A stretch of 64,000 nt of DNA. It comes from Nannocystis sp. Its GTDB lineage: Bacteria; Myxococcota_A; Polyangia; Nannocystales; Nannocystaceae. Location: the NCBI GenBank assembly GCA_016712315.1, contig JADJRG010000022.1, positions 930,522 through 994,521 on the forward strand. Reading direction: 5' to 3'. Shown here in pieces: positions 4,279 to 58,089 of the stretch; position 1 is the stretch's first letter, and every line of letters begins with the position of its first letter. Under the pieces are notes generated by a model. It saw only the letters and a program-made list of their open reading frames with translations, was not told the origin of the DNA and searched no databases. The translations under genes were made by a program, and so were the position numbers.

Positions 4279-7262
4279 GGCTCATCCTCCACGGTGAAGA
4301 AGCGGAGGACCACGGCCTTCTGCCAGCCCGGCTCGGGCTCGACCGCGATCGACCCATCGTAGCGCGACAGGAGGTCGACGGTGATCCCCATCCCGCGCTC
4401 GACGTAGCGCCCGCGCAGCATCTCGTTCGAGAGCTGCTCGCTCGATCGGTCCTTGATCCGGATCGCCAGCGTCGTCAGCCCGGTGATCTCATCTGTCTCT
4501 GCGACTAGATCGACCCCCAACTGCGCCGGGGACGGCCCGTAGAGGACGCTAGAGCCGAGCGAGTTTCGGAGCACGTTGGCCAGGATATCCTCGAGATCCG
4601 TCCGAAAGACCCGGATCTTCGCGCCCGCCCCCGCCACCTCGAGCTCCGCGATCGCCACCCGCCCGAACTGCGACTCCGCACAGACGAGCCCGAACACCTC
4701 ACGGATCGCCGTAGGCGTCACCTCGACGACGCACAGCGAGTGGATAAGCGAGCTCAAGCGCTCAAACGCCCGGCGCCCCAGCTCATGCCCGCTGCGCTTC
4801 AGCTTCGCCGCCAGATCGAGCTTCTTCGAGCGGAACTCCGCGCGCCCCGGCTCGAGCGTGTCCAGCTCCCGCAGCTCCTCGAACGCGCGGATCATCGGGC
4901 TGAAGATCGGGTCCTTGCGATAGAGGTTCAGCGTCACCCCGTACGTACGCGCGACCCCCTGCAGCTCATCCACGTAGCCGAGGAAGCGCCCGTAGATCCC
5001 CTGGTCCCGCGAAGACAGCCGTCGATCCGCCGGCGCCTCGCGTCGCCGTCGCCGCAGCCGCTCCCGCCCTCGCTCGCCGAAGAGCCGCCGCGCCACGATC
5101 GCCGCCCGAACCTCCGCGTCTGGCTCATCAAACTCGAGCGCGCGCCCCACATCTGTCAGGAAGGCGGTGTTGTGCTTCAGGATCTCATGCCGGATCAGGC
5201 TCAAGATCCGCGCCACCTCAGGAAAGCTCTTCGGCGCCCGCGCCAAGAGCTGCGCCAACGAAGCGCCCCTGAGCCGCCGATAGATCATCACCAGCGGCGC
5301 CACCAACATCAGCACGAGCAGCCCGCCACCGACCGCGTAGACCCGGCGAAAGGCCGCGTCGAAGTCCTCGCGCAGCAGCCGCGCGCGGTCCCAGTTGAGG
5401 TCATACGCGCCCGCCTCCGCTAGATAGAGATCGAGCTGCTCCGACGCCTCGACCCAAGCGTGCTCGCGCCACAGCAGCCCAGCCAGGCGAAACCGCGCGT
5501 TATACGACCCGAGCTCCGCCGCGCGTCGCAGGTGCACCACCGCCTCTGTCGGCTTCTCGATCTCGATCAAGATCCCGAGCCGCTCATGCACATCCACCTG
5601 ATCTGGGTCCATCTGCAAGCTGCGCTCCCAGAACCCCCGCGCGTCCCCAGGTCGCCCGTCCGCGTAGGCGACCTTCGCCAGCTCATTAAACACCTGCGGC
5701 TCATCGCCGTACTTGTCCGCCGCCGCTCTTAGGATCCGCTCGGCCTGCTTCCAGTCCTCGTCGTCCTCGTAGCGCAGGTACGCCTCGTTGATCATCCGCT
5801 GCAGCCCCGGATCCAAGCGCCGCAGATCGCTGGGCGGCTCGATCTCCGCCAGCGGCTCGTCCCCGCGCAGCTCACGGCTCAGGTTGTCGAGGGCGACCCG
5901 CGCCCGCTCCGCGTCGACGTCGTCCGTGCTCACCGACTCGAGGAACTGGCTGAAGTGCCGGCGCGCCCGCTCGCGATCGGAGCGCGCGTACAGCTCGCCG
6001 AGCAAGAAGTGCAGGTGCCGCATATCTGGCCGCAGCACCAGCGCACGCTCCAAGTGCTCGATCGCCGCCGCGTCCTCCGCCCCCGCGAATTCCTTCTTGT
6101 AGAGCAGCCCCAAGGCGATATGCGCCTCGTAGTCGTAACGGTCCATCCGGACCGCCAGCTTCAGCTCCTCCACCGCCTTCGCGTAGCGGCCGGTGCGCGC
6201 GTGCACGAGGCCCAGCGCGTAGTGGGCCTTCGGGAACCACGGCGCGACCTCGATCGCCCGCTGCAGCGCCGCCTCGGCCAGCGCCAGATCGCCCCGCCGC
6301 ATCGCCGCGTCCGCCGCCCGATAGCTCGCCTCAGCCTCTGCGTTCGGCCGACCGCCTTGCTCCCGCTCCAAGCGCGCCAGCTCGACCTCGAGCTGCATCT
6401 CCGCCACCTGCGAATTCGCGAGCGCGGCGTCGGGCGTGCCGGTGTAGAGCGCCGCCAGCGATCGATACGCGTCGATCGCCGCCTCCAGCTCGCCGCGCTG
6501 CCGGAGCAGATCGCCTTGCATCCGCAGCGCCTCGGCGATCGGCGGCCGCCCGAGCAGCGCGCACTCCTCTCGATAACGCGCGAGCTCCTGCGAGGCGGCC
6601 TCACGCAGCGCGCTCGCCTCACGCGGCAGCGTCGCCGCCTCCGCGTCCTCCGCGTACAGCCTCGCGATCATCACCCGGATCTCCGGAGGGCGCGAAGGCG
6701 CCCGCGGATCCTCGTCTGCGAGCTCCAGCGCCAGCTCCAAGCGCTCCCGCCGCATCGTCGCGCCGCAGCGCGCGAGCCACTCCAAGAACACCGCGCGCTC
6801 CTCGAGCCACAGCCCGCGCGGGTCGTAGAGGCGAAGCAGCCGCAGATCCTCGATCGCCTTGCGGGGGCACTGGTCCGCGCGCGCCCGCTTGTGGCGCAAG
6901 TAAGCGCGCCCTCGCAGCACCACCGGGTCACCCGGCTGCAGCTTCAGCGCCGCGGTGTACTCACGGATCCCATCATCGAGCTTCCCCTCGCGTTCGAAGC
7001 GCTGCGCCCGGCTCAAGTGAAGATCGAACTCGAGCTGCCGCTGCTCCAGCGTCGGCTCCGCGCCCCCGTCGCCCGCGCCGGTCGAGCCCTCACCCACCTC
7101 CGGCGGCGGCGGCAATAACGGCCCCGAAGCGCCCGAACGCTCGTCGATGGGCGGCCCCGCGCGCGCCAGCCCCACCGCGAGCGCCAGCGCCGCGCTCCCG
7201 GCCGCAGCCAGCGCTGGCGAGCGTGACCGCCACCGACGCCTCGATCGCCCCGTGCTCCGCAC
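4275..7262 (-). CDS. Sensor histidine kinase with a large periplasmic TPR-repeat domain
   Basis: N-terminal signal/anchor, about 600 aa of TPR-like repeats, one TM helix (GGGLLVLMLVAPLVMIY), H-box SLIRHEILKHNTAF, and a C-terminal HATPase_c region (LRNSLGSS ... RGMGITV). Confidence 0.75.
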   Translation of the reverse strand: MRSTGRSRRRWRSRSPALAAAGSAALALAVGLARAGPPIDERSGASGPLLPPPPEVGEGSTGAGDGGAEPTLEQRQLEFDLHLSRAQRFEREGKLDDGIREYTAALKLQPGDPVVLRGRAYLRHKRARADQCPRKAIEDLRLLRLYDPRGLWLEERAVFLEWLARCGATMRRERLELALELADEDPRAPSRPPEIRVMIARLYAEDAEAATLPREASALREAASQELARYREECALLGRPPIAEALRMQGDLLRQRGELEAAIDAYRSLAALYTGTPDAALANSQVAEMQLEVELARLEREQGGRPNAEAEASYRAADAAMRRGDLALAEAALQRAIEVAPWFPKAHYALGLVHARTGRYAKAVEELKLAVRMDRYDYEAHIALGLLYKKEFAGAEDAAAIEHLERALVLRPDMRHLHFLLGELYARSDRERARRHFSQFLESVSTDDVDAERARVALDNLSRELRGDEPLAEIEPPSDLRRLDPGLQRMINEAYLRYEDDEDWKQAERILRAAADKYGDEPQVFNELAKVAYADGRPGDARGFWERSLQMDPDQVDVHERLGILIEIEKPTEAVVHLRRAAELGSYNARFRLAGLLWREHAWVEASEQLDLYLAEAGAYDLNWDRARLLREDFDAAFRRVYAVGGGLLVLMLVAPLVMIYRRLRGASLAQLLARAPKSFPEVARILSLIRHEILKHNTAFLTDVGRALEFDEPDAEVRAAIVARRLFGERGRERLRRRRREAPADRRLSSRDQGIYGRFLGYVDELQGVARTYGVTLNLYRKDPIFSPMIRAFEELRELDTLEPGRAEFRSKKLDLAAKLKRSGHELGRRAFERLSSLIHSLCVVEVTPTAIREVFGLVCAESQFGRVAIAELEVAGAGAKIRVFRTDLEDILANVLRNSLGSSVLYGPSPAQLGVDLVAETDEITGLTTLAIRIKDRSSEQLSNEMLRGRYVERGMGITVDLLSRYDGSIAVEPEPGWQKAVVLRFFTVEDEP

Positions 7263-8957
7263 TCACTCCCCTCGCTTGCGCTTCAGCGATCGCAGCTTGA
7301 TCCCGAGCTGGTTCATCCGGAGCTGGATCTTGCGCCCCGCCTCCCCGTCATCCAACAAGATCCGCCCCATCTCCCCCAGATCGCCCTCACACTGGTCAAA
7401 GAGCTGCTCCAGGTACTGCCGCTCGACCGCGCACGACACAGAGTTCAATGACTCCGCCGCGATCAGCCGCACGCTCATCCGCCGCCCGGGACCCTCGCTC
7501 ACCGCCGCCGCCGCCTCCTCACGGCGTGCCAGCGTCATCGGCCGCAGCAGATCGCTCACTGTCTTCGCCGGGATCGGCACCACCTCAGGGCGGCTCGCCA
7601 GCGCCGGATCACCCGGCTCGATCTGCGGCGCGCGCTCGACCAGCTCGACCAGCGTGAACGTCACCAAATTTGAGAGGGTCATCTCGAAGTGGCGAAAATT
7701 CCCCGGCCACTCGAAGCCGCGCATCAGCTTGAGCGAGCTCGGGTGCAGCAGGAAGTGGATCCGCGAGGGATCCGGCCGGGTCGGCACCACCGAGCCTACG
7801 CTCACCGCCAGCGCCCCCTCTTGCGTCGGCAGCGAGAGCCCGCGCTGGCTCGCGTACTGCAGCACCAGATCGCGGTTGTACGCCTCCGAGGCGACCCGTC
7901 GCAGGAAGAACGACAGCAGCTCATAGAAGTCATCGCGCCGCTCGGCCAGGCCCGGCAGCGTCACCGCGGTCGCCGGGTTCAGCCGCATAAACAAGTCCTC
8001 GCGGAAGCGGCCGCTGCGGACCATCGCCGCCAGGTCTTCGTTCGTCGCGACCACCAGCTTGATGTCCGCGACCCGCTCCTGCACCGATCCCACGGGCCGA
8101 TACGTGCCCTCCTGCAGGACCAGCAGCAGCGACTTCTGCAGCTCGAGGCTGAGGTTCCCGATCTCATCGAGGAACAGCGTCCCGCCGTGCGCCCGCGCGA
8201 GCACCCCATCCCGGCTCGCGATCGCCCCCGTATACGCCCCCTTCGTCACCCCGAACAGGTGCGCCGCCATCAGGTCGCTCGGGATCGTCGACAGATCGAC
8301 CGCCACGAACGCCCCGCTGCGCCCCGAGTGCGGGTGGATGAATTCGCGGCACAGGAGGCTCTTCCCGGTCCCCGTAGCGCCCTGGATGATGATCGGCAGC
8401 CGCCCGCGCGCCAAGATCCCTAGCCGCCGCCGCAGGCTCAACATCGCCGGCGTCTTCCCCCAAAAGAACGGCTCGTCAGGCGTCTCGGCCGGCTGCTGCT
8501 GCCGCGCCAAGATCCCCTCGATCTGCAGCTTCAGCGAGCGCGCGTCGAGGTAGTCATCCGCCAGCAGGTACGTGTACTCCTCCGCGTGCAGCCGCTCCGC
8601 GTCGACCCCCAGCGGCAGGTCATCACGCGACGTCATCACGATCAGCGGCAGGTCTGGATAGCTCTCTCGCAGCCGATCGAGGATCTGCAGCCCTTGTGTG
8701 CGCCGAAGCCGCTCGATCACCCGTGAGCGCTCGCCCTTCGCCAGCAGCGGCCCCTTATCGAAGGGCAGCAGCTCCTCATCGGCGATGTTGAAGTGCACGT
8801 CCAGCAGCACCAGATCGATCTTGCCCGCGCGCCGCCGCAGCGCCTCTGCGGCCTCGCGATAGCAGCGCGCCACCGGCAGCAGCTCGTACTCCGGCATATA
8901 GCGGCGCACCAGCTCGTGGTAGCTGTCCTCGTCGTCGATGATCAGGATCGAAGACAT
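7263..8957 (-). CDS. Sigma-54-dependent transcriptional activator (NtrC family: receiver + AAA+ + HTH)
   Basis: Receiver MSSILIIDDED...LDVHF. Walker A GATGTGKS, GAYTGA (GAFTGA variant), ESELFGH-like region, and a C-terminal HTH. ATG at 8955-8957. Abuts the histidine kinase gene. Confidence 0.85.
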   Translation of the reverse strand: MSSILIIDDEDSYHELVRRYMPEYELLPVARCYREAAEALRRRAGKIDLVLLDVHFNIADEELLPFDKGPLLAKGERSRVIERLRRTQGLQILDRLRESYPDLPLIVMTSRDDLPLGVDAERLHAEEYTYLLADDYLDARSLKLQIEGILARQQQPAETPDEPFFWGKTPAMLSLRRRLGILARGRLPIIIQGATGTGKSLLCREFIHPHSGRSGAFVAVDLSTIPSDLMAAHLFGVTKGAYTGAIASRDGVLARAHGGTLFLDEIGNLSLELQKSLLLVLQEGTYRPVGSVQERVADIKLVVATNEDLAAMVRSGRFREDLFMRLNPATAVTLPGLAERRDDFYELLSFFLRRVASEAYNRDLVLQYASQRGLSLPTQEGALAVSVGSVVPTRPDPSRIHFLLHPSSLKLMRGFEWPGNFRHFEMTLSNLVTFTLVELVERAPQIEPGDPALASRPEVVPIPAKTVSDLLRPMTLARREEAAAAVSEGPGRRMSVRLIAAESLNSVSCAVERQYLEQLFDQCEGDLGEMGRILLDDGEAGRKIQLRMNQLGIKLRSLKRKRGE

Positions 8958-8958
8958 G

Positions 8959-9387
8959 TCACGCGCCTGCGCCGCGGAGCCGCCGGTGCAACTGTAACAG
9001 AGCCGCGCGGATCGTCGCCTGCGCCGCTCGTAGCCCGCTCCGCAGCTCCGCGAGCGCCGCCCGATCGCCCGCCCGCAGCGGCGCCTCAGCCGCGCGCAGC
9101 GTCGCCACCGCGGCTGCCACATCCTCTAATTCAGGCGCGGGGAGCGGCGCACCAAGCTCGGCGCTGAGGCGCGCCCAGACCTCCCAAGCCGCCTCTGGAG
9201 CCCCGCTCAGGCCTGCGCGCGTGCGCAACAGATCCGCCTGCAGCGACTCTACCAGCGGCGCCTCCACCGGCCCTGACCACGCCGACTCGTCGAGGTTCAC
9301 GCAGCGCCACGACGAGTACTTACCCAGGTCGTGCTTCAGCGCCGCGACCGCCTCGATCAGCGCCTCGCGATCGATAGGATTCGCCAT
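8959..9387 (-). CDS. Hypothetical protein (142 aa)
   Basis: Coding-like composition. Its stop abuts the activator start (operon position). No recognisable motif. Confidence 0.4.
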   Translation of the reverse strand: MANPIDREALIEAVAALKHDLGKYSSWRCVNLDESAWSGPVEAPLVESLQADLLRTRAGLSGAPEAAWEVWARLSAELGAPLPAPELEDVAAAVATLRAAEAPLRAGDRAALAELRSGLRAAQATIRAALLQLHRRLRGAGA

Positions 9388-9396
9388 CGCCGCGGA

Positions 9397-9843
9397 TCAG
9401 GTGACGAAGTAGCGGGTCGCCCGGGCGCGCCCCGAGCTGCCGATCTTGCCCATCTTCTTCATCCAATTGAGGTAACCACGCAGCTCTTCGACGTCGATAT
9501 CGACCTGCTTCGCGAGCTGGCCGATCGTCAACGGCCCCTCCTCGATCGCCTCGAGGATCTGGCGGTACGCGCGGACCTCGCGGCTCTCATCGCTCGCCGG
9601 GGCTGTCTCATCGGCCAGATCATTCTCCGCTGCGCGCCCTCCGGCGGGGGCGACCCCGTCCAGCGCCTCACTGAGCTCTCGCAGCGTCAATTCACGGATC
9701 GCCGCCCCCGCCTCGCTCTGCAAGAGCTCGCGCAGGGTCATCGTCGCGGGCATCCGCGAGACTGTATTCAGCGCGGCCTTACGCAGGAGGTTGGCGCGGT
9801 TCTGCCGAAGCGCGGACTCAAAGAGCTGGGCGATCTCAGTCAT
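9397..9843 (-). CDS. Hypothetical protein with a C-terminal winged-helix-like segment
   Basis: C-terminal LTIGQLAKQVDIDVEELRGYLNWMKKMGKI resembles an HTH/winged helix. First gene of the six-gene minus-strand cassette. Confidence 0.45.
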   Translation of the reverse strand: MTEIAQLFESALRQNRANLLRKAALNTVSRMPATMTLRELLQSEAGAAIRELTLRELSEALDGVAPAGGRAAENDLADETAPASDESREVRAYRQILEAIEEGPLTIGQLAKQVDIDVEELRGYLNWMKKMGKIGSSGRARATRYFVT

Positions 9844-9954
9844 GGAAGGCGACCACAGTCCCTGCGCTCTCCCCAGAGTTTGGGGTCGAAGGCGCGAGGG
9901 CGCCCACTATGCCACCGCGCGGTGTAACCGACAAGCGCCGCGACCTGCGCTTGA

Positions 9955-10653
9955 TCAGTCGCAGATCAGATAAGGCACATCGACCCGATAGTCACCGCAC
10001 TCCCAGCAGCAGTCATCACAATCGAGCGACCCATCGGCCCCGATCCCCCAGTTTCGGTCGTTCGCGGTCGCCCCGAAGCAGATCCACTCGCCCTCGCCGC
10101 ACTCGATCGACTCGGGCACGTCCACGTCGAAGCCCGGCGTCACGAACACCGAGTCGGCGTTCGGCCAGATCCAGTCGCGATCGGCCGCGAACAGCCGCCA
10201 CTCCGCGTCGATCCCGTCGTCGCAGCGGTCCACCACCGACCAGTCCATCGCCACCGTCGGGTTACACAGCTCTGGCGCCTCGTCCGCTCCGTTCGCGCAG
10301 CTCTGCGCGCCGTCGCAGAGCGAGTCGACCGCCAAGCAATCACCGCTGCCGCACACCGCCACGGCGCCCGCGTTGCAGTAGCACAGCCCCTCCGAGCAAT
10401 ACGCGTTCAGCCCGCACGCCTCATCGGCCTCGCAGGTCCCCTCCGCGGTCGTCGGCTGGCAGCCCTGCGCCGCCTCTGCGTTGCCCGCGTAGCCGTCATC
10501 GCACACACACACGCCCTTGTAACAGCTCGCGTTAGCGCCGCAGATCTCTGGACACGCGCCCGGCTCGGTCGGCTCTACATACACCGCGCAGCCGATCAAG
10601 AGCCCGAGCAGAGCGGCCGGGGCCGCGCGAAGCAACATCATGGGGACTCGCAT
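9955..10653 (-). CDS. Cysteine-rich secreted lipoprotein (EGF-like Cys spacing)
   Basis: Start MRVPMMLLRAAPAALLGLLIGC with a lipobox. More than 30 Cys in about 200 aa. The listed ORF 9955..11286 is over-extended upstream and would overlap bioA. Confidence 0.6.
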   Translation of the reverse strand: MRVPMMLLRAAPAALLGLLIGCAVYVEPTEPGACPEICGANASCYKGVCVCDDGYAGNAEAAQGCQPTTAEGTCEADEACGLNAYCSEGLCYCNAGAVAVCGSGDCLAVDSLCDGAQSCANGADEAPELCNPTVAMDWSVVDRCDDGIDAEWRLFAADRDWIWPNADSVFVTPGFDVDVPESIECGEGEWICFGATANDRNWGIGADGSLDCDDCCWECGDYRVDVPYLICD

Positions 10654-29969: not shown

Positions 29970-31517
29970 GTGATGACCGCGAACGCCGAAGTCCGCCCTG
30001 CGGCCGCCCTCTTGCACCCGGCGTGGCTCGGCGCGCTCGTCCTGCTCGCGCTCAACGATCACATCTTGAAGGGGGGCCTGCACGCGCCTTCCCTGCTCGT
30101 CGGTAAGCTCAGCGACATCACCGGCCTCTTGGTCGCGCCCGCGCTCTTCGCCGCGCTGCTCCGCGTCCGCAGCCTGCGCGGGCTCTTCGCCGCCCACCTC
30201 GCCGTCGGCCTCGTCTTCGCCGCGATCCAGCTCTCGCCCGCCGCTGCTGCGGCCTGGAGCGCCCTGATGGCCGGGCTCGGCGCCCCCTGGAAGATCACCT
30301 CCGATCCTGGCGACCTCCTCACGCTCCCCAGCCTCCTCGTCTCATGGCGGCTCTTCGTCCCTGTCATGCTCGGAGCGCCGCCGATCATCGGCCTGCGCCG
30401 CCTCGCCACCGCGACCGCCGGCTGTATCGGTCTGCTCTTCTGCGTCGCCACCAGCCCGCCGCCTGAGACGATCCCCTACAACCCGCTCAACACCGACGTG
30501 TACATCCACAACGACACCGGCGAGCGGCTCGTCTTGATCATCCGCCAGCTCCGCGCCGATCTCGAGACCGACTGTGAAGTCGTCACCACCGCCCCGGAGC
30601 TGCTGCGCGAGCCACACTTCGGCGAGCCGGCCACCTGGTCCTTGGGCAACCAGGTCAACGCCGCCGCCCTCCCACTCGCGGGAGATCCGGCGCCCACACG
30701 CCCTTGCCGCGCCATCCTACTCACGAGCGACACCATGGCGCCGACGGTCGTCACCTGGGCTCGCGACGATCTGCCGCTCACCATCCAACCCGGCGTCGTC
30801 CACGGCGAGGACCACGCCGAGGGCGCCCTCTTGATCAGCGACGAGGACGGCGACACCGAGCTCACCCCGATCGGCGCCATGAGCATCACCCCGCTCGGCG
30901 CCGGCGACAGCGATCAAGCAGCCAACTGCCCCGCCCAGAGCGAACTCGATCGCCTCTTCTGGAGCGCCCCTGTCCCCACCGGCATCGCCCAGCTCACCGA
31001 GGTCGATCTCGGCGCCGACGGCTGCTACGCCCTCGGCCTCGACGGCGCTCGCTGGTACCTCTGCGCGCCCGCCCCGCTCTTCCCGTTCCAGGTCGGCGAC
31101 TGGGTCTCCTTAAAGGCCACCAGCGGGACCAGCAGCGACACCGTCCAGCTCGATCTGCTCGACGGCCCTGGCGGCGAGCCGGCGACCCCAGCCCGCCGGC
31201 TCATCGTCTCGCGCGGCGACGGCTTCCCCTTTATCCCCGGGCTCAGCGGCGAGCCCAGCGCGCAAGCGGGCTGCACGTACCAGGTCTCAGGCGCCTGCGC
31301 GGCGGTGACCCGCCCCATCGAGCTCCTGGTCAACCACGGCGACGGCGCCACCAACCTCACCGTCGGAGCCCCGGTGACCGTGCCTGACGGTCTAGGCGGC
31401 GTCTGGACGCTGGACCTCGCCTACGCGCAGCGCCCGGCCTTCTTCGACCCCGCCTGCGATGAAGGCGACAACAGGCTCACCGATCACATCGACCTCGCCG
31501 CCCTCTACTCGCCCTGA
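29970..31517 (+). CDS. Integral membrane protein (about 6 N-terminal TM helices) with a C-terminal periplasmic domain
   Basis: Hydrophobic N-terminal 200 aa, then a soluble Cys-containing domain. Confidence 0.55.
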   Translation: MMTANAEVRPAAALLHPAWLGALVLLALNDHILKGGLHAPSLLVGKLSDITGLLVAPALFAALLRVRSLRGLFAAHLAVGLVFAAIQLSPAAAAAWSALMAGLGAPWKITSDPGDLLTLPSLLVSWRLFVPVMLGAPPIIGLRRLATATAGCIGLLFCVATSPPPETIPYNPLNTDVYIHNDTGERLVLIIRQLRADLETDCEVVTTAPELLREPHFGEPATWSLGNQVNAAALPLAGDPAPTRPCRAILLTSDTMAPTVVTWARDDLPLTIQPGVVHGEDHAEGALLISDEDGDTELTPIGAMSITPLGAGDSDQAANCPAQSELDRLFWSAPVPTGIAQLTEVDLGADGCYALGLDGARWYLCAPAPLFPFQVGDWVSLKATSGTSSDTVQLDLLDGPGGEPATPARRLIVSRGDGFPFIPGLSGEPSAQAGCTYQVSGACAAVTRPIELLVNHGDGATNLTVGAPVTVPDGLGGVWTLDLAYAQRPAFFDPACDEGDNRLTDHIDLAALYSP

Positions 31518-31717
31518 TCCGCCGCCGCGCTCGCCGCCGGCACATAGATCTCGCGCACACGGCTGCTCTCTTGGTCGATGTTGAGCCCGTGCGAAGACGC
31601 CCGCGGCACCCACACGTGCGGCGCCGTGCTCGCCTTCGGCGACCCCGAGCAGGACACAGCGGCCAGCAGCGCCGCCAGCAGCATTATCGCCGCGCCGCGG
31701 CTCAAAAGCGCCCCCAC
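31505..31717 (-). CDS. Possible small lipoprotein (70 aa)
   Basis: GTG start. MGALLSRGAAIMLLAALLAAVSC lipobox. No clear Shine-Dalgarno sequence. Overlaps the upstream gene's end by 16 nt. Confidence 0.25.
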   Translation of the reverse strand: MGALLSRGAAIMLLAALLAAVSCSGSPKASTAPHVWVPRASSHGLNIDQESSRVREIYVPAASAAADQGE

Positions 31718-32466
31718 AGCGCGAGGCCGAAGTGGTGGCTGTTCATCGTCGGCACCGCCGCGATCACCGCCCGCTCGTAGGCGCGCATATCACGGCGATA
31801 GCGGAGCCCCCACAGCGCCATGCCCAGGCCGCTCGACACCATCATCGCCGAGCCGTCGAGCGCCAGCCGAGCCGCGGAGAACGGGCACAGCTCGCTCCCT
31901 GGCGTGAACAGATCCGGGTCAGGAGCCGCCTGGCGATAGGGACCTGTCTCTCCGACCATACAGCGCCACCACAGCACCTCGTTCGTCACCCCGCCGATCG
32001 CGCCCACCGCCGCCAGCGTGAGGCCTGCCGCGATCATGCCCTTCGTCGGGCGCGTCCGCCGACCCAGCGCCGTGTCCATGTACGCGTCGTAGCGGCCGCG
32101 CAGCGCCCCGCCGATCGGCGCCAAGATCATCGCGGGGCCGATGAAGAGCCGCTCGGTCACCCCCGACATCGAATTATCGTTCAGCGCCAGATCGCTGAGT
32201 TGGATCACCGCGCCGACGCCGAAGGTCGCCGCTGCCGCGATGAACAGCGCCTTGCCGTCGCCCTGCGGCGGCGCCACCTTCACGTAGTCGCGCCACAGCA
32301 GCCACGCTGGGATCTCCTCCGCCTGACGCGGCTGCGTCGTCACGGCCGTGGCGGTCGTCGTCGCCGACGCCTCAGCGGCCTCGGCCGAGTTCGAAGCGAC
32401 AGACAGAGCGAGGACGAGCGCCCGGATCACGCCTGCGACGGTACCCCGCCTCACCGGCGGCAGCAA
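31702..32466 (-). CDS. Secreted protein, probably a small outer-membrane beta-barrel (C-terminal ...LALWGRF)
   Basis: Signal peptide. Gly-rich amphipathic segments. C-terminal Phe. TTG start preceded by GGGGG, 12 nt after the upstream stop. Confidence 0.45.
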   Translation of the reverse strand: MLPPVRRGTVAGVIRALVLALSVASNSAEAAEASATTTATAVTTQPRQAEEIPAWLLWRDYVKVAPPQGDGKALFIAAAATFGVGAVIQLSDLALNDNSMSGVTERLFIGPAMILAPIGGALRGRYDAYMDTALGRRTRPTKGMIAAGLTLAAVGAIGGVTNEVLWWRCMVGETGPYRQAAPDPDLFTPGSELCPFSAARLALDGSAMMVSSGLGMALWGLRYRRDMRAYERAVIAAVPTMNSHHFGLALWGRF

Positions 32467-32478
32467 GGGACGACCCCC

Positions 32479-33534
32479 TCACTTGGGCTCGCGGAGCAGG
32501 CGCACACGGACGTGTTGGTGCTGACGCAGCTTGTACTGCGCGTGCGAGCTCTCGCCCAGCTCGTTCGACTCCGCGGTCGCGCGATCGAGCACCTGGAACT
32601 CCGCCAGCACGAAGACGACGCTGCCGCGGCCGCCTTGGCGCTCCTCGGGGCCCAGCAGATCGGCCACGCGCACCGGCAGGTCGGCGATGAAGTTCAAGAT
32701 CTTGAAGCCAGCCCCCGAGAACTCGTTGGTCTCGAGCCCGCCCCCGTCCTCGCCCTCCGCCGCGCTCCTGGTCGCCTGCAGCCGCGACCCGTCGATCAGC
32801 GAGTTCACCGTCTGCCCCGGGACCACATAGTTGAAGGGGATACAGCGGCGCAGCATGATCTGCAGCGTCGGCACCAGGTCCTCGGGACCGCGGACGATCA
32901 AGCGGAAGCGCAGGCGGTCGAACACCCGCGCCGCGTTGGTCTCGCGCTTGACCAGCATCTTCGTGATCAGCGAGTCCTTGGTCTTACGCGACCACGAGAA
33001 CTCGACCACGGGCACCCCTGCGGTCCGCAGCGCGTCGATCATCAGCGTCACGTTCTCCTCGACCAACGAGAAGATCTGGTTGTCTGAGATCGCCAGGGTC
33101 GTCCGCAGCTCGCGGGCGTCCAGGTGATAGATGATGTGCATCACCTTGAGCAACATGCAGGCTTGGCGCTGCTGCGCCGAGCTCTTGCCCGAGGCGATCA
33201 GCGGCAGCGCTAGCCAATCGACGCCGCTGGCGATCGCTTCATCCAAGCGGATCTTGAGGGTCTCGAGGATGTAGCGGGCCGCCTGCGCGCGCAGCTCCTG
33301 CAAGCGGTCGCGGTCGCGCGGATCGTCGACATCCAGGCAGTTCAACGCGAGCAAGCGCCGCACCTCATCCTCGGTCGTGAAGGAGAGGCGATGCCAGTCG
33401 ACGACCGACTGTCCGCGCAGCAGGAGCTGGATCTCGCTGATGTCTTGCAGCGAGAGCGCAGCGCCACCGTCGGCGCGCCGCCACAGGCTGTGCGAAGTAG
33501 GCAAGCCCGGGCGATCTGGATCCTGGCGGCTCAT
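32479..33534 (-). CDS. RelA/SpoT-family nucleotide pyrophosphokinase (small alarmone synthetase-like) with a ~160-aa N-terminal domain of unknown type
   Basis: Collinear with the Rel synthetase core: SWSRKTKDSLITKM (GRPK..YSIYRKM), FDRLRFRLIV (catalytic-Asp block DLIAIRVI), GAGFKILNF (NGYQSIH), VFVLAEFQVLD...GESSHAQYK (EIQIRT...AAHWAYK). No HD hydrolase motifs. Confidence 0.6.
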   Translation of the reverse strand: MSRQDPDRPGLPTSHSLWRRADGGAALSLQDISEIQLLLRGQSVVDWHRLSFTTEDEVRRLLALNCLDVDDPRDRDRLQELRAQAARYILETLKIRLDEAIASGVDWLALPLIASGKSSAQQRQACMLLKVMHIIYHLDARELRTTLAISDNQIFSLVEENVTLMIDALRTAGVPVVEFSWSRKTKDSLITKMLVKRETNAARVFDRLRFRLIVRGPEDLVPTLQIMLRRCIPFNYVVPGQTVNSLIDGSRLQATRSAAEGEDGGGLETNEFSGAGFKILNFIADLPVRVADLLGPEERQGGRGSVVFVLAEFQVLDRATAESNELGESSHAQYKLRQHQHVRVRLLREPK

Positions 33535-33573
33535 CGCCCTGCACCTCGCGCGAGGCCGAGCGCAGCGCGGGGC

Positions 33574-33663
33574 TCAGCCGAGGCGGCGCGAGAACCGCAA
33601 AGTACCCACCAAGAGGCCGACGGTGATGAGAGCTGCACAGATATTTCCGAGGTAGGCGGTCAT
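33574..33663 (-). CDS. Micro-ORF: 29-aa hydrophobic peptide MTAYLGNICAALITVGLLVGTLRFSRRLG
   Basis: ATG preceded by AGGAAG 7 nt upstream. Single predicted TM helix with a basic C-terminus. Lies 39 nt upstream of the RelA/SpoT-like gene. Below the ORF-track size cutoff and found by eye. Confidence 0.3.
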   Translation of the reverse strand: MTAYLGNICAALITVGLLVGTLRFSRRLG

Positions 33664-34043
33664 GTGGGGAGCTTCCTGTCTGGCGTGCGCGGCGAGCGTG
33701 GTCGTCACCTATCACGAGTGCTGCGATCTACGGAAAAAACGCACAATGTAAGACAAGAGCGCGGCGACCGGGCTCGGGCCTCGCCCTCACACCCCGTACG
33801 CATCGCCGCAAATAACATATTCCCGAGGCCCGCGGAAAGCCTTGATAACGCGCAGCGCATCGCGGCGCAGAGCGCCCTAGAGGCCCTCTTGCGCGCTCAA
33901 TTACGAGATCGAGGGGATCGCCGAGGACGCGCGCCCACGAGGCCCGCGCGCTCACCAGAGATCTTCGCAGCGATCGCCTCCAGGGCGATCGCGCACCCGC
34001 GACGTGCTGGCGCGCGCACAGCAGTGCGGGTAGCGTTCCGCCC

Positions 34044-56652: not shown

Positions 56653-58089
56653 GTGCTCACACTTAGCCTCACCACCGTCCTCTACATCGCCGCCAGCGCC
56701 CTCTTTATCCTCAGCCTCAGCGGCCTCGGCCGCCAGGAGACCGCCCGCAGCGGCAACCTCTACGGCATCATCGGCATGGCGCTCGCGATCATCGCGGCCG
56801 CCTTCGGCGTCACGGAGATCCAGCGCGACCTCACCGTCGCCAACGTCCATGGCAGCGGCTTCGGCATGCTGGCCGCGGCCATCGTCCCCGGCGCGGTGAT
56901 CGGCGCGATCTTAGCGGCGCGCGTCGCGATGACCGCCATGCCCGAGCTGGTCGCGATGTTGCACTCCTTCGTCGGCCTCGCCGCGGTGCTCGTCGGCCTC
57001 GCCAGCCACATCACGCCGCTCAAGGAGCTCACGGGCGCCGATCACACGATCCACGCGGTCGAGATCTTCGTCGGCGTCTTCGTCGGCGCCCTCACCTTCA
57101 CCGGCTCGATTATCGCCTTCCTCAAGCTACGCGGCTCGATCGGCGGCAAGCCGCTGCTCCTCCCTGGCCGTCACCTCCTCAACCTCGCGATGGTGCTCGG
57201 CTCGGTCGCGCTCGGTTACCTCTTCCTCGGCGACCCCGCCCAGAGCCTCACCTGGCTGCTCGTGATGACCGGCGTCGCCTGCCTGCTCGGCGTGCACATG
57301 GTCATGGCGATCGGCGGCGCTGACATGCCCGTCGTCGTCTCGATGCTCAACTCGTACTCCGGCTGGGCCGCCTCGGCCGCCGGCTTCATGCTCGAGAACG
57401 ACCTCCTCATCATCACCGGCGCCCTCGTCGGCTCCTCCGGCGCGATCCTGTCCTACATCATGTGCCAGGCGATGAACCGCTCCTTCATCTCCGTGATCGC
57501 CGGCGGCTTCGGCTCGGACGGCGGCGCGCCCGCGGCCGGCGGCGCCCAAGCGATCACCGGAGATCAGACCGAGATCAGCCCCGACGACACCGTCGAGCTG
57601 CTCCGCGAGGCCAAGAGCATCGTCGTCGTCCCGGGCTACGGCATGGCCGTCGCGCAGGCCCAGCACACCGTCTCGGAGATCGCCAAGCTGCTGCGCAAGC
57701 GCGGCGCCGAGTTCCGCTTCGCGATCCACCCCGTCGCAGGCCGCCTGCCTGGCCACATGAACGTCCTGCTCGCCGAGGCCAACGTCCCCTACGACATCGT
57801 CCTCGAGATGGACGAGATCAACGATGATCTCCCGGACACCGACGTCGTGCTCGTCATCGGCGCCAACGACATCGTCAACCCCTCCGCTCAGGACGATCCG
57901 TCCAGCCCGATCGCCGGCATGCCCGTGCTCGAGGTCTGGAAGTCCAAGACCGTCATCATCATGAAGCGCGGCCGCGGCACCGGCTACGCGGGCGTTGAGA
58001 ACCCGCTCTTCTTCAAAGAGAACAGCCGCATGCTCTTCGGCGACGCCAAGAAGACCGTCGACGGCCTGCTCACCAAGCTGCGCGAGTGA
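56653..58089 (+). CDS. pntB: NAD(P) transhydrogenase subunit beta
   Basis: Multi-TM N-terminus. dIII region [14 protein letters not shown] ... GANDIVNP. Confidence 0.9.

Follow-up and report, generated by a model that had tools for sequence, protein, structure and literature searches.

A conserved open reading frame for a predicted membrane micro-protein stands upstream of a RelA/SpoT synthetase-like gene (TIGR04552) in Nannocystis and other Polyangia

The subject of this analysis is a small group of genes in a 64-kb window (the whole stretch of DNA analyzed; GC 69%) from Nannocystis sp. In this group, a micro-open reading frame (micro-ORF) for a 29-residue peptide stands upstream of the gene for a 351-residue protein that resembles the synthetases in the superfamily that RelA/SpoT homologs (RSH) make up, and genes for a 254-residue membrane protein and a putative 70-residue lipoprotein follow. 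All four ORFs are read from the minus strand and together span positions 33663 to 31505. They had been predicted earlier from the letters alone (below, the sequence-only reading), and every coordinate given at that time was borne out, as were the 39-nt gap between the micro-ORF and the enzyme start, the 12-nt gap behind the enzyme, and the overlap of the last two genes (Table 1). The GC content at third codon positions (GC3) of the three longer ORFs is 0.88–0.91, matching that of the neighboring genes. It is the first two genes that recur together in related genomes, and these are considered first.

By its match to the NCBIfam models, the 351-residue protein can be assigned as a full-length member of TIGR04552, a family that is named but carries no assigned function. 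It scores 314.5 bits (E 1e-93; cutoff 125) over model positions 2–352 of 352, and 303.5 bits with the sister model TIGR04562 (cutoff 140). The record of an identical protein derives from a metagenome-assembled genome and bears the title “TIGR04552 family protein [Nannocystis sp.]”. Full-length members of the family mostly have 320–400 residues, and among 1.84 billion representative proteins there are 915 clusters (50% identity) that match a profile of close relatives at E ≤ 0.001. Hundreds of relatives of the same length occur in Myxococcota genomes and metagenomes, and those with names come from Nannocystis, Enhygromyxa, Plesiocystis, Haliangiales, Kofleriaceae, Polyangia, Sandaracinaceae, and unclassified Myxococcota. 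The literature mentions members only in passing, namely Myxococcus xanthus MXAN_4858 (bioRxiv 10.64898/2026.08.28.747804) and a gene in a mutation list for Bdellovibrio sp. NC01; no paper was found that characterizes the family or its biochemistry, or that mentions the micro-protein. For M. xanthus and Sorangium the 2011 RSH census gives no more than a “SYNTH[S]” protein left unclassified, and for Haliangium and Bdellovibrio nothing besides Rel. Because the entries for these taxa are so sparse, the family is at the edge of detection in RSH surveys.

It should be noted that, taken alone, the protein shows its relationship poorly. The Pfam model RelA_SpoT (PF04607) matches it at E 0.18 (12.6 bits, below the cutoff of 27), and a phmmer search against the PDB returned no match to RelP or RelQ. 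The sequence-only reading had held that the lack of a significant PF04607 match would speak against its assignment. For this one protein such a match is indeed lacking, but profile and fold evidence overrides the result. When an AlphaFold2 model (predicted local distance difference test score 75, predicted template modeling score 0.73) was compared with the PDB using Foldseek, every match at E ≤ 1e-3 was an RSH enzyme (Rel, RelP, RelQ, RelA, SpoT). A profile built from 48 diverse family members (27%–58% identity) matched, among 177,635 PDB sequences, only YwaC (E 0.008), RelSeq (0.01), and Staphylococcus aureus Rel (0.03). In the same set, PF04607 is the one Pfam family that recurs, matching 34 of 48 members at E ≤ 1, the best of them at E 3.6e-5; several relatives also carry precomputed PF04607 matches. 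Because the structure search, the family profile, and the PF04607 survey agree, we accept the resemblance to RSH synthetases. The C-terminal ~230 residues have the synthetase fold, with a likeness that is weak at the sequence level and clear by profile and structure.

The motifs of the active site are in register between the family profile and RSH sequences in alignments of hidden Markov models (HMMs), so the block-by-block alignment with the (p)ppGpp synthetase core that was proposed from the letters holds. In these alignments, (R183)K184-x3-S188-x3-K192 corresponds to the ATP-binding R-x-K-x3-S-x3-K (with the Arg displaced by one position), F-D206-R-L-R-F-R211 to F-D264-L-I-A-I-R269 of RelSeq, F276-K-I-L-N281 to G-Y-x-S-L-H, E312-F-Q314 to E323-V-Q325 (EVQIRT), and H331-x-x-Y334-K335 to A-H-W-x-Y-K. 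Across the 48 members, K184, D206, and E312 are invariant; conservation is at least 90% at S188, K192, R209, Q314, H331, Y334, and K335; and a basic C-terminal helix (K335, R337, R345) is conserved as well. To judge from these residues the catalytic center looks intact, and the protein is predicted to be active. No HD fold or motif, degenerate or otherwise, was found in the N-terminal region, and fold and profile evidence agree with the earlier description of a stand-alone, synthetase-type protein that has no HD hydrolase domain. The accompanying remark that the window contains no long Rel/SpoT gene is true, but uninformative for 64 kb.

Two parts of the protein depart from this picture. Of the acceptor (G) loop, D-Y-I-x-x-P-K-x-N-G-Y-x-S-L-H, one half aligns with N235-Y-V-V-P239 and the other with G-x-x-F276-K-I-L-N281, and between these segments is a length-variable insertion of ~30 residues (approximately residues 245–272), modeled with low confidence, that ends in an invariant N-E-F-S-G. 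The loop has lost its Lys and has Asn in place of the His; its aromatic residue survives, as Tyr in the family consensus and as Phe in the 351-residue protein. Because the loop has been rebuilt in these ways, the acceptor may not be the canonical GDP or GTP. Taking the modeled structure and the catalytic motifs together, we would place the enzyme in the RSH synthetase superfamily, with a non-canonical acceptor loop. The second part is the N-terminal region, where the sequence-only reading left ~160 residues unassigned. Some of these can now be placed: residues ~120–175 form two long helices that pair, in profile alignments, with the helices before the first synthetase strand of RelSeq and YwaC. 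For residues ~27–118, a family-specific bundle of short helices, no structural relative was detected, and here the earlier statement stands. The protein has no transmembrane (TM) segment.

The rebuilt acceptor site raises the question of whether the chemistry itself has changed. An enzyme that AMPylates its substrate, or that pyrophosphorylates a non-nucleotide acceptor or the 3' end of an RNA or tRNA, would suit the inserted loop with its own invariant motif, the lost Lys, the change of His to Asn, and the conserved basic C-terminal helix, and so would a non-catalytic binding protein. All residues for ATP binding and for Mg-dependent pyrophosphate transfer are nevertheless kept, which argues against a pseudo-enzyme. 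An RNA binder would be expected to have a strongly basic isoelectric point, but the family median is 6.7. We consider a different chemistry unlikely, although it deserves to be kept in view.

The conservation of the micro-ORF was followed in 68 loci from one-genome-per-species contigs and in several more from exact-protein look-ups. A homolog of the encoded peptide (MTAYLGNICAALITVGLLVGTLRFSRRLG) is present directly upstream of the enzyme and on the same strand in 70 of 72 loci, spread over Nannocystales, Haliangiales, and Polyangiales; one of the two loci without a homolog has no upstream sequence. Among Nannocystales it occurs in Nannocystis, Enhygromyxa, Plesiocystis, and Paraliomyxa, and it is likewise found in Haliangiales and Kofleriaceae (e.g., MIAVIGNVLIGVVALSLFTATVRIGR). 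In Polyangiaceae and other Polyangia, the same TM core comes after a lipoprotein signal peptide (e.g., ...LILSGC, followed by NSALVGNLLVLGVTVAIFFGTLGLGRG...). The micro-peptide is 25–30 residues long; it has a conserved core, (I/L)G(N/H)-x8-(G/A/S)L(L/F)x(G/A)T(L/V)R, and its C-terminal tail is basic. The topology predicted for both architectures is the same, with the N-terminus outside and the basic tail inside.

Several features of the DNA indicate selection on the peptide. The nucleotide alignment shows conservation of the ATG and of a purine-rich Shine-Dalgarno sequence, and variation peaks at third codon positions; the pairwise ratio of nonsynonymous to synonymous substitution rates (dN/dS) is 0.33 in frame, compared with 0.89 and 2.25 in the shifted frames. 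An HMM of the peptide has one significant match in the whole window, which is the micro-ORF. In Pfam, NCBIfam, and PADLOC the peptide has no matching family, and gene callers pass it over: in the complete genome of N. punicea (CP114040.1; positions 4499–5000 of our locus L078) it was not called, and 503 nt are left empty there. On this evidence the micro-ORF is a real, selected, and unannotated gene for a small membrane protein, and its translation is predicted. The sequence-only reading had described a 29-residue, single-TM peptide with a good Shine-Dalgarno sequence and had proposed checking whether it stays beside the enzyme in related genomes; it proves to be a genuine conserved neighbor. 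Beside distant family members (L073, L075, L076, L079, and L080) it is absent, so it would seem to be specific to the Polyangia branch of the family and one further, uncultured clade (L074).

A conserved small ORF directly upstream of an enzyme gene could instead encode a leader peptide that acts in cis in the manner of MifM, SecM, or VemP. The synthesis of such a peptide, or its insertion into the membrane, would control how the enzyme is translated, and the peptide would have no function of its own. The position and strand would suit this, as would the 39-nt spacing in the window (median ~72 nt in the other loci), the hydrophobic character of the peptide, and its conserved C-terminal T-L-R-F-(S/T)-R-R, which could serve as an arrest motif. 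However, the distance to the enzyme start ranges from about −13 to 277 nt, which leaves no fixed geometry with respect to the ribosome-binding site that follows. The spacer RNA shows no more structure than shuffled sequence does (z = −0.09), and a search for a riboswitch or regulatory RNA between micro-ORF and enzyme gave nothing in Rfam below E 0.7. In addition, the best-conserved part is the TM core with its polar Asn and Thr, and it is kept even where the protein has gained a lipoprotein signal peptide and, at its C-terminus, a long tail. Because the core is retained across both architectures, we favor a functional membrane protein and regard a leader peptide as quite improbable.

Upstream of the micro-ORF, an alignment of Nannocystales loci revealed an AT-rich motif, TTGTC(C/T)TACAT, that is kept in most of them. 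Behind it come a T-rich stretch and a GTG(A/G)TA block. The motif may serve the operon as a promoter or operator. A promoter scan found no consensus sigma-70 promoter in the operon or at the motif. There is no terminator inside the operon, and the sole terminator-like match is upstream of it.

Table 1. Positions of the genes, domains, and other elements discussed, numbered from the first letter of the 64-kb window
Feature	Position	Strand	Remarks
Micro-ORF, 29 aa	33574..33663	−	ATG start; Shine-Dalgarno sequence AGGAAG 8 nt upstream
TIGR04552-family protein, 351 aa	32479..33534	−	ATG start; Shine-Dalgarno-like GAGGTG upstream; predicted cytoplasmic enzyme with RSH (RelA/SpoT) synthetase fold
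Family-specific N-terminal helical domain, ~residues 27–118 of the 351-aa protein	33181..33456	−	Includes nearly invariant G41, S43, D46, W47
RSH-synthetase-like catalytic core, ~residues 120–351	32482..33177	−	D206 codon 32917–32919; E312 codon 32599–32601
Membrane protein with signal peptide, 254 aa	31702..32466	−	TTG start, 12 nt after the stop of the 351-aa gene
Putative lipoprotein, 70 aa	31505..31717	−	Signal peptide ends ...AAVSC; 16-nt overlap with the 254-aa gene; GC3 0.89
Non-coding motif TTGTC(C/T)TACAT	33746..33756	−	~85 nt upstream of the micro-ORF start; from the upstream alignment of 21 Nannocystales loci
One-mismatch copy of TTGTC(C/T)TACAT	57448..57458	+	Inside pntB; probably chance
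Terminator-like match	33820..33838		Upstream of the operon
Small gene, 137 aa	34044..34457	+	Pro-rich C-terminus; no family assignment
Small gene, 64 aa	34479..34673	−	No family assignment
Cys-rich secreted protein, 345 aa	34725..35762	−	Ser/Thr-rich linker; no family
Cys-rich secreted protein, 503 aa	26263..27774	−	Five DUF4215 repeats
TonB-C protein, 721 aa	36596..38761	+	N-terminal TM segment, long Pro/Glu-rich charged region, TonB C-terminal domain, extension of ~220 residues

The surroundings of the module are housekeeping in character. On one side are lexA, a tolA/tonB-like gene, a gene of the purine-nucleoside-phosphorylase family, a Ser/Thr kinase gene, dnaB, rplI, rpsF, and a H+-pyrophosphatase gene; an Omp85-family (BamA-like) gene lies on the other side, together with a histidine kinase gene and rseP-like genes; and glmS, pntAB, argC, and argD are found elsewhere in the window. 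The order lexA, tolA-like gene, 137-aa gene, micro-ORF, enzyme is kept across genera of Nannocystales, and synteny with lexA and the tolA/tonB-like gene is seen in about 31–33 of the 68 loci. Across loci, only the micro-ORF is a general neighbor of the enzyme beyond order-level synteny. Searches of PADLOC, plasmids, and viral contigs gave no matches. Overall, the enzyme and the micro-ORF look like a vertically inherited core, or housekeeping, pair in the class Polyangia.

A TIGR04552-like gene (23% identity over 93% of the query) was also found in a record labeled “Microcystis phage MaAM05” (MW495066.1, 274 kb; positions 123414–124631 of our locus L077). It is flanked by glyS, gatD, secDF, secF, and mtgA and looks like cellular rather than phage DNA. 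We rejected an association with phages based on this record, given that the gene sits among cellular housekeeping genes.

These observations bear on a role in toxin-antitoxin or anti-phage systems, which the sequence-only reading had offered as an option. Type I toxins include hydrophobic peptides of the size of the micro-protein. The enzyme could thus be a toxin of the toxic small alarmone synthetase (toxSAS) type with the micro-protein as its antitoxin, or the micro-protein could itself be a type-I-like membrane toxin, and a stand-alone RSH synthetase beside a tiny gene does recall toxSAS operons (PMC7229694). However, the chromosomal position is fixed, with conserved housekeeping neighbors across genera; the defense, plasmid, and viral searches were empty and the single “phage” record looks cellular; distant family members have no adjacent small gene at all; and the protein carries an extra conserved domain of 120 residues that toxSAS do not have. 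With a housekeeping region and stable synteny on the other side of the balance, we consider a role of this kind very improbable.

The two genes downstream of the enzyme are of a different standing. With tblastn, the 254-aa protein was found in 6 and the 70-aa protein in 5 of the 68 loci, and in all of these the enzyme is at least 76% identical to that of the window. No match was obtained for the former in Pfam, NCBIfam, or PADLOC, nor to any outer-membrane protein (OMP) family, and none for the latter in Pfam or NCBIfam. The Kyte-Doolittle profile of the 254-aa protein has hydrophobic 19-mers at residues 73–91 and 143–161, after the signal peptide; two further Gly-rich hydrophobic stretches can be made out by eye, and a Cys pair and the C-terminal ...VG(S/R)F are conserved. 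These features suit a helical inner-membrane protein better than the small outer-membrane barrel that had been predicted. In other Nannocystales the same position is taken by an Exo_endo_phos gene, or by a convergent GAF-GAF-GGDEF cyclase gene with DivIC. Co-transcription of the 254-aa gene with the enzyme is probably confined to the subclade of closest relatives, and both downstream genes are recent, subclade-specific additions outside the conserved module, although the sequence-only reading had counted them as part of it. Its more cautious alternative, a housekeeping small alarmone synthetase with fortuitous neighbors, fits these two genes but not the micro-ORF, which is a conserved partner. 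An envelope-stress module of four genes, in which the enzyme would act together with the supposed barrel and the lipoprotein, is scarcely credible, because a short gap and an overlap that suggest co-transcription in this genome, and a signal peptide with a conserved C-terminal Phe, must be set against the occurrence of the genes only in nearest relatives, their replacement by others elsewhere in Nannocystales, and the lack of an OMP family match in a protein with helical-looking TM segments, all of which speaks strongly against a general role.

Some further neighbors were noted along the way. In 30 loci a GAF-GAF-GGDEF diguanylate cyclase gene is convergent with the enzyme and is followed by a DivIC/FtsB-like gene (e.g., L006 9382–11565, L078 8096–10246), and in Haliangiales and other Polyangia the convergent gene encodes a Ser/Thr kinase of large size that carries PEGA or TPR domains. 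These neighbors may reflect a link in signaling or merely order-level synteny. Of the 68 loci, 40 keep the 137-aa gene beside the module and 31 keep the 64-aa gene; the former is transcribed divergently from the micro-ORF. Of the Cys-rich secreted proteins, the one of 345 residues is conserved in 18 loci. The 721-aa protein resembles TolA/TonB and is syntenic with lexA across Nannocystales.

Our preferred interpretation, held with moderate confidence, is that the micro-ORF and the enzyme gene form a two-gene, vertically inherited operon of Polyangia, encoding a membrane peptide and a divergent RSH-type synthetase that the peptide and the N-terminal domain control or localize. The first gene would yield a single-pass inner-membrane peptide of 25–30 residues with its N-terminus outside and its basic tail in the cytoplasm. 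The second would yield a soluble enzyme whose C-terminal two-thirds are a divergent RelA/SpoT-type synthetase with the full catalytic set (ATP-binding Lys/Ser/Lys, Mg-binding Asp, catalytic Glu-x-Gln, and His...Tyr-Lys). We infer that this enzyme moves the beta-gamma pyrophosphate of ATP onto the 3'-OH of a nucleotide-type acceptor, possibly one other than GDP or GTP. The N-terminal helical domain and the micro-protein would regulate it or hold it at the inner membrane, and in this way a cue from the envelope or membrane could be coupled to the synthesis of a nucleotide signal.

A number of points weigh against this interpretation and should be stated together. The protein by itself fails the Pfam RelA_SpoT threshold. 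The acceptor loop differs enough that transfer of pyrophosphate to a nucleotide would be an extrapolation from the known enzymes. The distance between the two genes is variable. Because distant members of the family occur without the micro-ORF, the enzyme does not generally need it. Finally, the conserved part of the peptide is a TM helix and the enzyme is soluble, so direct contact between them is not obvious.

The sole functional hint for the family comes from M. xanthus, where MXAN_4858 lies close to one end of the Glt G1 cluster and transposon insertions in it show a fitness pattern resembling that of gliding-motility genes (bioRxiv 10.64898/2026.08.28.747804). In one high-GC genome (L080), the gene divergently adjacent to the family member (9001–10125) is GltJ-like (7175–8785, minus strand), encoding a GYF domain, a TM segment, and an AgmX/PglI C-terminal domain, with a weak match to GltJ (62.8 bits against a cutoff of 450); this arrangement echoes the position of MXAN_4858 by the Glt G1 cluster. 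The 721-aa TonB-C protein of the window was considered as a gliding protein of the GltJ or GltG type and rejected, given that it matches TolA/TonB models only and has no similarity to the GltJ-like protein of L080.

RSH enzymes are at the core of bacterial stress signaling, and small stand-alone forms have recently been found to make unexpected products, such as (p)ppApp and pyrophosphorylated tRNA. With this in mind, a wider proposal can be made, tentatively and as something we think improbable in its full extent: TIGR04552 could be an unrecognized alarmone-type branch in Myxococcota and Bdellovibrionota that makes a non-canonical product, is gated by the micro-protein in Polyangia, and feeds into gliding motility and development. 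The remodeled acceptor site is the reason to suppose a non-canonical pyrophosphorylated product, and the output in surface behavior is supposed because the MXAN_4858 fitness pattern and the GltJ-like neighbor in one locus hint at it. What makes the family worth attention is that a whole clade combines an intact-looking catalytic center with a rebuilt acceptor site and a new domain, and that in Polyangia a conserved micro-protein, overlooked by gene callers, accompanies the enzyme. Should the enzyme be active, it would be a new nucleotide-signaling enzyme for social and predatory bacteria, and the pair would be a clear example of a soluble signaling enzyme accompanied by a membrane micro-protein. 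Even as an ordinary (p)ppGpp synthetase, it would usefully give an annotation to a family of no known function and to an unannotated small gene.

It is useful to compare the pair with systems already described. The toxSAS (FaRel, FaRel2, PhRel, CapRel) (Jimmy et al. 2020, PMC7229694) share with it a conserved adjacent small gene. However, the Polyangia pair is vertically inherited in a housekeeping region, and no association with defense islands, plasmids, or phages was found; its small partner is a TM peptide of 25–30 residues rather than a soluble antitoxin or small alarmone hydrolase (SAH), and this partner is missing in distant TIGR04552 members. The RelQ/YjbM (SAS1) and RelP/YwaC (SAS2) enzymes of Firmicutes have the Lys/Ser/Lys, Asp, Glu-x-Gln, and His..Tyr-Lys blocks in the same register and likewise have no HD domain. 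The similarity to them is below the Pfam threshold, and the 351-aa enzyme adds the conserved N-terminal helical domain of ~120 residues and the ~30-residue insertion in the G loop. It also differs in the range of its family (Myxococcota and, by the literature, Bdellovibrio), in the membrane micro-protein encoded upstream, and in having an activity that is so far a prediction. The sequence-only reading had allowed that the protein might fall among RelP, RelQ, and RelV, single-domain proteins of ~200–250 residues; its length of 351 residues, its extra domain, and the sequence searches, in which only the family profile reaches YwaC, place it elsewhere. As for the peptide, it is similar in size to small membrane modulators such as MgrB, AcrZ, and KdpF, and like them it has a single TM segment and is encoded beside its presumed partner; it has no sequence relationship with any of the three, and here the presumed partner is a soluble enzyme.

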